This document shows, in pieces, positions 50,807 through 51,574 of a stretch of DNA of 64,000 nucleotides (the first letter of the stretch is position 1; each line of letters begins with the position of its first letter). Location: the NCBI RefSeq assembly GCF_003790525.1, contig NZ_CP033634.1, one strand, 5' to 3'. Position numbers and translations under genes: made by a program. The notes under the pieces are model-generated. The model searched no databases. It saw nothing but the letters and a program-made list of their open reading frames with translations, and was not told where the DNA came from. Source of the stretch: Escherichia coli (GTDB taxonomy: Bacteria; Pseudomonadota; Gammaproteobacteria; Enterobacterales; Enterobacteriaceae).

Positions 50807-51127
50807 GTGTCCGCGATGAACGTGCATGGATTTCGTACATATGCGTCCTGTCAGGGGCATGGCTTCCCTGTTACGAAACTGCCGCCTTATATCGCCTTTT
50901 CCTGTCCGGTAAAAATGGCTGCCCTTCTGGAGCAGCGACTGCGGCAGGATGCTGAATCAGCAATACCACGTCTGACATGGGGATGGTCGGTGAAGGGGAC
51001 TTTTAACAGTGATTTTCAGCTTTGCTTCCGGCTTCAGCCTGAAAGCCCTCATCACTGGTATCACCGGTACTGTCGCCGCTCACTGCGTGCAGACTTCAGG
51101 ACGCTGGTCCGCTTACTGAATCCGTAA
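50807..51127 (+). CDS. Hypothetical protein (106 aa) preceding the HNH endonuclease
   Basis: ORF-track entry; start uncertain. Confidence 0.4.
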   Translation: MSAMNVHGFRTYASCQGHGFPVTKLPPYIAFSCPVKMAALLEQRLRQDAESAIPRLTWGWSVKGTFNSDFQLCFRLQPESPHHWYHRYCRRSLRADFRTLVRLLNP

Positions 51128-51151
51128 ATCTGTTCCCGTAAGGAGGCATTG

Positions 51152-51574
51152 ATGGCGCTGACAAAGAAGCAGCGGGAAAAACTGCGTATGAAATTCGGCG
51201 GTCGTTGTGCGTACTGCGGCTGTGAACTGCCGGAAAAAGGCTGGCATGCCGACCATGTTCAGGCGGTGCTCCGCAAGTCAGAGCAGTGCATGAAGGCTGC
51301 AGAAAAGCGCATTTTCAGGCTGAAATCCACCGGTGATGTTTTCAGACCGGAGGCCGACTGTCCGGAAAACCTCGTCCCGGCCTGTGCGCCGTGCAACCTG
51401 CTGAAAACAACATATTCGCTGGAGATGTTCAGAACGCAGGTGTCCCTGCAGGTTGAACGGGGGCGAAGAAGCAGCGTGAATTTCAGGACCGCAGAACGGT
51501 TCGGGCTGATTCAGGTGGTGAACAAACCAGTCGTGTTCTGGTTTGAGCAATATCAGAGGGAGAGTGAGGTATGA
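51152..51574 (+). CDS. HNH endonuclease-domain protein inserted between trbC and traN
   Basis: CxxC...HADHV...CAPCN pattern (GGRCAYCGCELPEKGWHADHVQAV...ACAPCNLLK); RBS AGGAGG 5 nt upstream; stop overlaps traN start. Confidence 0.8.
   Translation: MALTKKQREKLRMKFGGRCAYCGCELPEKGWHADHVQAVLRKSEQCMKAAEKRIFRLKSTGDVFRPEADCPENLVPACAPCNLLKTTYSLEMFRTQVSLQVERGRRSSVNFRTAERFGLIQVVNKPVVFWFEQYQRESEV

Follow-up and report, generated by a model that had tools for sequence, protein, structure and literature searches.

The closest described counterparts of the gene considered here, a 140-codon gene that very probably encodes an HNH nuclease and lies in the transfer (tra) operon of an Escherichia coli plasmid, are known from other plasmids and from phages. 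We studied it in a 64,000-nucleotide (nt) stretch of contig NZ_CP033634.1 (assembly GCF_003790525.1), which as a whole is called the window below. An identical protein (100% amino acid identity), encoded at the same site and with the same ATGA overlap onto the next gene, is recorded in RefSeq as WP_001229309.1, 'HNH endonuclease signature motif containing protein', from IncF plasmids of E. coli and Klebsiella. The counterpart in Salmonella pSLT-type plasmids, listed as PSLT094.1N in the annotation of phage g341c, is 88-91% identical in amino acid sequence, occupies the same place with the same ATGA overlap onto traN, and lacks the 123-codon gene that stands upstream in the window. RefSeq already lists the gene, under its HNH label, for hundreds of plasmids, and the pSLT copy was mentioned in the 2009 annotation of g341c. 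Our literature search found no functional study of the gene; the 'HNH' mentions in plasmid papers refer to other genes. New here are the description of the slot between trbC and traN in four states, the figures for co-divergence and selection, and the independence of the two genes inserted in the slot.

The nearest relative with a solved structure is Gme HNH (PDB 4H9D), a nicking endonuclease of Geobacter metallireducens and a small prophage-type zinc-ribbon enzyme, with which the window protein has the layout CxxC…DH…N…CxxCN in common. The window protein, whose activity is predicted only, differs in having an additional β-hairpin of about 20 residues, which parts the two halves of the motif, and a helical C-terminal extension of about 55 residues. 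Full-length relatives with 80-87% amino acid identity are found among the phage members of the family PHROG 2118 (gp24 of g341c, and proteins of Escherichia phages Bas77-80 and HC6). Their genes also show ATGA-type overlaps, but lie in an early region (g341c) or near the terminase gene (Bas77), not in a transfer operon. Phages also carry free-standing HNH homing endonuclease genes of the T4 Mob type. Like these, the window gene is small, stands alone between conserved genes, occurs sporadically and has flanks that differ between filled and empty alleles; unlike them, it has diverged together with its host backbone, and the likeness drawn here is one of arrangement and distribution. The packaging-type HNH protein gp74 of phage HK97 resembles the window protein in being small and of phage type, and some close phage relatives of the window gene lie near a terminase gene. 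However, a profile comparison with gp74 was not significant (hhalign probability 2.3%), the plasmid has no terminase, and the neighbours are trbC and traN, so this candidate was rejected.

The HNH gene and its expression

The gene and its translation signal are located as follows.

51152-51574, plus strand: predicted HNH nuclease gene (ββα-metal, H-N-N variant), 140 amino acids (aa), assigned from PHROG 2118, the PDB 4H9D profile, an AlphaFold model, Foldseek, residue conservation and the ratio of non-synonymous to synonymous divergence (dN/dS)
51139-51146, plus strand: Shine-Dalgarno-like sequence TAAGGAGG, from direct reading of the sequence, 5 nt ahead of the HNH ATG

A first-pass annotation of the window had described a 140-aa open reading frame (ORF) with a CxxC...HxxH...CxxCN pattern, a strong ribosome-binding site and a stop overlapping the traN start, and all of these are present as described. 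The ATG is at 51152 (an alternative TTG, at 51149, begins 3 nt earlier in the ORF listing), and the stop codon TGA, at 51572-51574 after 140 codons, overlaps the traN ATG (51571-51573) to form ATGA. The TAAGGAGG element falls within the 24-nt spacer that separates the end of the upstream ORF (51127) from the HNH gene. In the protein, the pattern reads C19-x2-C22, H32-A-D-H35 and C78-x2-C81-N82. The location inside an F-type transfer operon, with trbC on one side and traN on the other, was likewise borne out by the ORFs and by the annotation of the neighbours. That this is a genuine gene and not a chance ORF is seen from its 1,343 close-word homologues, from the 1,463 clusters at 50% identity returned by an exhaustive search, and from a dN/dS of 0.07 against the Salmonella plasmid copy.

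We looked for a promoter belonging to the HNH gene and found no promoter-like site on the plus strand between 49000 and 53600. Together with the strong ribosome site and the overlap with traN, this makes expression from the tra operon the expected mode. Most likely, the gene is transcribed with the operon, lacking a promoter-like site of its own, and is translated from its own strong ribosome site, with coupling to traN through the ATGA overlap. As a consequence of co-transcription, the protein would be made when the transfer genes are on.

The protein as an HNH nuclease

The proposal that the protein is an HNH nuclease was supported by several independent comparisons. The PHROG 2118 profile ('HNH endonuclease'), whose homologues are present in 179 phage records, matches residues 1-138, and thus the full length, with an E-value of 8.7e-58; secondary matches are to PHROG families named 'endonuclease VII' (E 4.4e-10 and 1.3e-6). 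When a profile of the family was compared with 4H9D, the match (E 7.8e-8) comprised two stretches covering both halves of the motif. A PDB search with the single HNH sequence had returned a chance match only, and the profile search was needed. The AlphaFold model has a pLDDT of 94.7. In Foldseek searches with this model, HNH domains make up the top 30 or so PDB matches, at weak E-values of 0.02-0.2; the leading ones, from Cas9, Cap5 and Gme HNH, have probabilities of 0.9-0.98. Phage HNH models in BFVD match at an E-value of 4e-14 with a TM score of 0.84.

In an alignment of 74 homologues with 35-91% identity, the zinc-site cysteines C19, C22, C78 and C81 are invariant, and D34, H35, N73 and N82, which align to the motifs of 4H9D, each occur in 90% or more of the sequences. 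The residues expected of such an enzyme are thus all in place: the catalytic histidine H35, as general base in a D-H dipeptide, the central asparagine, and the last Asn/His metal ligand. The first-pass annotation had proposed a search with Pfam PF01844 as a check. This search gave two sub-threshold fragments only (E 0.27 and 2.1), a result that would by itself have counted wrongly against an HNH fold that the other evidence supports. PF01844 fails because the insertion of about 20 residues splits the motif, which is a limit of the Pfam model. Taken together, the evidence makes it very probable that the protein is a functional HNH nuclease under selection. Its predicted fold is of the ββα-metal type, stabilised by zinc as in the 'zinc-ribbon HNH' enzymes of phages, and it is probably a nickase or a cutter.

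We also considered an effector of the Septu PtuB or retron HNH (TIGR02646) kind. The matches are partial (NCBIfam E 2.4e-4, 21 bits against a cut-off of 52; PADLOC E of at least 5.7e-4 over 20-30 residues) and no partner gene, whether a PtuA ATPase or a retron reverse transcriptase, is adjacent, and this candidate was rejected.

Four states of the trbC-traN slot

A survey of the trbC-traN position in related plasmids, as the first-pass annotation had suggested, uncovered a polymorphism. Among the 3,463 PLSDB records with trbC and traN flanks (hereafter F-like records), 535, or about one in six, carry the full insert of ORF and HNH gene. Four states of the slot can be distinguished. In most plasmids trbC and traN overlap directly. 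In a second state, a 123-codon ORF is followed by about 235 nt with a small zinc-ribbon/membrane ORF on the opposite strand. The third state is that of the window, with both the ORF and the HNH gene. In the fourth, seen in the Salmonella pSLT-type plasmids, the HNH gene is present alone, and trbC is followed by a 6-codon ORF similar to the beginning of the 123-codon gene.

In two loci of the second state (L002 and L003), a 72-aa ORF with two CxxC pairs and a hydrophobic tail stands in the place of the HNH gene (about 1130-1365, minus strand). In the same two loci, which have the 123-codon gene and no HNH gene, traN is annotated with a different N-terminus that does not resemble a signal peptide.

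The carriers of the HNH gene are pHK01-like IncFII plasmids in E. coli, close relatives of these in Klebsiella, and the Salmonella pSLT-type virulence plasmids. A gene at least 95% identical occurs in 309 of 5,426 complete E. coli genomes, with 321 of its 324 places on plasmids, and it adjoins traN in 23 of the 25 places shown from that search. As most F-like plasmids lack the gene, transfer does not depend on it, and it does not belong to the conjugation machinery. A core gene of the F-type type IV secretion system or tra set is accordingly ruled out, about 85% of F-like records lacking the HNH gene and having trbC and traN in direct overlap.

At greater distance, homologues with 50-70% identity are found in about 1,950 mostly large conjugative plasmids. 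The context of these was taken from four neighbourhoods, of an IncHI1, an IncHI2 and an IncHI1B/FIB plasmid and of one other large plasmid (L017, L015, L016 and L018 are the loci concerned, in the order IncHI2, IncHI1B/FIB, IncHI1 and other for L015 to L018), where the homologues lie at about 4890-5470 in each and are 55-71% identical. The neighbourhood is conserved between IncHI1 and IncHI2, with a PAPS-reductase-family gene, small ORFs, the HNH gene, and DUF6012, DUF957 and DUF3085 genes. Outside these two groups, the inspected homologues adjoin genes for Dam or Dcm methyltransferases, RdgC and DnaN.

History of the allele

Between the window and the pSLT-type plasmids, synonymous divergence (dS) is 0.84 for the HNH gene, compared with 0.85 for traU, 1.22 for trbC and 1.34 for traN. 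The dN/dS of the HNH gene in this comparison is 0.068, as low as that of the best-conserved tra gene. At shorter range, the window gene and that of plasmid locus L007 differ by five synonymous and no non-synonymous changes. All catalytic and zinc residues are intact in every copy examined, and the Shine-Dalgarno sequence and the coupling to traN are kept in both plasmid lineages. Because dS equals that of the backbone and dN/dS is low, the gene was present before the lineages split and has been kept functional since. We also asked whether the HNH block is younger than its surroundings, as after a sweep; this was rejected as evidence for drive, its conservation only equalling that of traU and traF.

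The boundaries of the polymorphism extend slightly beyond the inserted genes. The last 44 nt or so of trbC (50716-50759), which belong to the insert-linked polymorphic block, share only 53-64% identity when filled and empty alleles are compared, against 84-93% for the body of trbC, and the first 55 nt or so of traN, which encode the signal peptide and travel with the HNH gene, are 74% identical. Just beyond these divergent flanks, filled and empty alleles are 88-97% identical. The signal-peptide segment of traN is 100% identical in all E. coli-type plasmids with the HNH gene that we examined. In one pair, L021 with and L022 without the HNH gene, mature traN and traF are 99.7% identical, with a breakpoint no more than 55 nt from the HNH stop codon. 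The HNH gene is thus an old presence/absence allele that has been shifted between backbones by recombination. In view of the co-divergence with the backbone, and of flanks that differ between filled and empty alleles, neither an insertion into the common empty site nor a deletion from it was recent. Of the first-pass suggestion of a selfish homing insertion, the presence/absence at a fixed site stands, and a recent insertion does not, as dS equals that of the backbone and the empty-site flanks differ.

The gene has also moved between plasmids and phages. The gp24 gene of the P22-like Salmonella phage g341c is 87% identical in nucleotide sequence to the pSLT copy and lies in the early-left ('ea') region, with the erf/abc recombination genes upstream of it. 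The HNH gene of Bas77 and related phages (about 80% amino acid identity) is separated by a few small genes from the large terminase gene, which lies downstream of it. Homology between the plasmids and g341c begins at 51139 and ends at the gene borders. Flanking homology between the g341c and pSLT copies, sought as an indication of the direction of transfer, was not found beyond the gene. Judging from these borders, the HNH gene alone is the mobile unit between plasmids and phages.

The upstream gene is a separate module

The ORF that precedes the HNH gene had been reported as 106 codons long, with nothing said of its function. It does exist, but is the 3′ part, read from a GTG at 50807, of a longer gene that is annotated in relatives:

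50756-51127, plus strand: conserved 123-codon accessory gene, annotated in relatives by the Prokaryotic Genome Annotation Pipeline (PGAP)

In relatives, the ATG of this gene overlaps the trbC stop codon as ATGA, while the window and its 99.9% identical twin L001 have ATA in place of this ATG and TAA as the trbC stop codon. The product has no significant match in Pfam, and no match in NCBIfam or PADLOC beyond chance level (one chance-level NCBIfam match arose among this ORF and the two ORFs between traU and trbC described below). The family is small, with 45 proteins, and two contigs with distant homologues have them in other slots of F-type tra operons (traR-traP and traH-traG), without the HNH gene.

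One might suppose that the 123-codon gene and the HNH gene, adjacent as they are in the window, form a single two-gene system, such as a modifier or immunity protein with its nuclease. This is highly improbable. The pSLT-type plasmids have only the HNH gene, with the 6-codon remnant-like ORF upstream, some Shigella and E. coli plasmids have the 123-codon ORF without the HNH gene, the ORF family occurs in other tra slots without it, and the phage copies of the HNH gene lack the ORF. Furthermore, the two genes diverge differently in the same plasmid pairs, with dS of 0.27-0.30 versus 0.044-0.055. The separate distributions thus indicate that the two are independent modules, and the idea of a two-gene system is largely refuted by them.

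Possible roles of the nuclease

As to what the nuclease does, we tentatively place first a selfish or competitive nuclease that acts on sister plasmids without the HNH gene, a role that we consider possible although not probable. The enzyme would cut related F-like plasmids carrying the HNH-less version of the slot, and this would lead either to loss of the rival plasmid or to repair of the break from the HNH allele, a homing-like conversion. We rank this role first because the gene keeps strictly to one site, is present in some plasmids and absent from others, has allele-specific flanks and is under a selection that needs an active enzyme. Presence/absence at one fixed site among close relatives, which is characteristic of homing genes, was found here, and a homing nuclease would need just such differences between filled and empty flanks for target-site immunity. 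An extension of the idea, which strikes us as improbable, is that the place of the gene within the tra operon serves to time a conflict between plasmids, that is, a drive or interference system built into the conjugation operon. Donors and new transconjugants would then make the nuclease as tra expression surges, and the HNH-less trbC-traN junction of resident sister plasmids would be cut, so that these are converted or displaced. The first-pass annotation had also suggested that the nuclease could act in the recipient. Its position, about 14 kb into the tra operon, lends no support to this; in F transfer, the tra operon enters the recipient last.

Several observations weigh against a selfish or competitive role. 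The HNH gene has co-diverged with the backbone (0.84, compared with 0.85 for traU), with no sign of horizontal spread between the lineages faster than that of the backbone. Within the E. coli-type plasmids its diversity (1.4%) is like that of traU and traF (about 2%); deeply diverged alleles are found there for trbC, for the middle part of the upstream ORF and for traN. A history discordant with the backbone, which is another mark of homing genes, was thus not found in either comparison, and the pattern is explained by ordinary recombination within a mosaic operon, with no need for drive by the nuclease. The 5′ end of traN in pSLT shares 84% identity with the empty alleles and only 72% with the E. 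coli allele that has the HNH gene, so the flank differences are not strictly tied to the HNH gene. In IncHI1, IncHI2 and IncHI1B plasmids, the homologues have the look of backbone genes that are fixed within a conserved neighbourhood, and a useful function accounts for this better than homing does. Moreover, entry exclusion and incompatibility limit the co-residence of sister plasmids.

A useful function could be that of an accessory nuclease for defence, anti-defence or establishment, which would cut or nick foreign DNA entering the cell, from phages or from competing elements in general, and be made together with the pilus; its phage targets would include pilus-specific phages. The long-lasting, strong purifying selection is in accord with this, as are the approximately 1,950 plasmid homologues, which in the four neighbourhoods inspected sit in conserved blocks of small genes next to methyltransferase, PAPS-reductase-family, RdgC and DUF6012 genes, and the homologue in the early 'ea' region of g341c. 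There is also a weak, domain-level similarity to PtuB and retron HNH effectors, but the PADLOC and NCBIfam matches are partial and far below the cut-offs (E of at least 5.7e-4; 21 versus 52 bits). Since, in addition, no gene for a partner ATPase or sensor adjoins the HNH gene and about 85% of F-like plasmids do without it, we regard a defence function as rather unlikely. Less likely still is a role like that of endonuclease VII or Gme HNH, in which a structure-specific or nicking enzyme would aid plasmid recombination or repair around conjugation, for example by resolving intermediates or by stimulating allelic exchange in the variable trbC-traN segment. The secondary PHROG matches to endonuclease VII, the structural matches named recombination endonuclease VII, the nicking activity of the nearest solved relative, the position of the g341c copy downstream of erf/abc and the strong recombination mosaic of the surrounding tra segment can all be read in its favour. 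However, the endonuclease VII names are annotations, plasmids without the HNH gene are equally mosaic, and nothing links the gene to the relaxosome.

It could finally be asked whether the enzyme does anything at all, or whether a phage gene was captured once and is carried as a passive passenger without a current function. The gene is dispensable for transfer, most F-like plasmids lack it, and nearby slots of the operon hold miscellaneous unannotated ORFs and insertion sequence (IS) elements. Nevertheless, a dN/dS of 0.07 over a dS of 0.84, intact catalytic and zinc residues in all copies examined, five synonymous against no non-synonymous changes in the comparison with L007, and retention of the Shine-Dalgarno sequence and traN coupling in both lineages would be hard to reconcile with this. 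A passive passenger is thus disfavoured by the selection test, and we think it very improbable. We infer the order of the active roles to be selfish or competitive nuclease, then defence or establishment, then structure-specific or nicking recombination enzyme.

The carriers are epidemic resistance plasmids and Salmonella virulence plasmids, in which selection has kept the HNH gene intact since the lineages split. Should the nuclease cut the DNA of rival plasmids or of phages, it would influence which F-like plasmids prevail in mixed populations, and would offer a simple handle for plasmid-competition experiments. If it is only a nickase passenger, the matter is one of routine annotation.

Neighbouring genes and other variable slots

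The window is a segment of a pHK01-like IncFII plasmid. Four Rfam matches that reach the gathering score place it there: AS-pc01, which is antisense to pHK01_035, at 25222-25324, sok at 32598-32774, the traJ 5′ untranslated region with FinP at 36712-36821, and AS-traG at 58739-58824. The tra operon starts at about 38 kb and runs rightwards; around the HNH gene, the order on the plus strand is traU, two unannotated ORFs, trbC, the upstream ORF, the HNH gene and traN. The named neighbours are:

48179-49171, plus strand: traU
50121-50759, plus strand: trbC, F-type pilin assembly protein (NCBIfam PRK13730, E 1.3e-126)
51571-53421, plus strand: traN, mating-pair stabilisation protein, from the ORF and the annotation of relatives

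The spacer between traU and trbC (49172-50105) contains an ORF at 49200-49511 (103 aa, hydrophobic) and another at 49574-49945 (123 aa), neither of which has a significant match in NCBIfam, PHROGs or PADLOC. This slot is variable: L001 and L019 have an IS3 element there, L021 has other ORFs, and in L020 and L006 it is empty.

Downstream of traN, at 53445-54437, trbE and traF are fused into one reading frame of 330 codons. In L021 and L022 they are separate, overlapping genes, and relative to these the fusion results from a 4-nt deletion (one CTGA of CTGACTGA) at about 53650. The near-identical plasmid L001 has the same 4-nt deletion, and trbE is not annotated there. Some pSLT-type plasmids have an extra 158-aa ORF between traN and trbE (8245-8721 in L013), for which we found no Pfam match; the traN-trbE interval is thus another variable slot of the tra operon.
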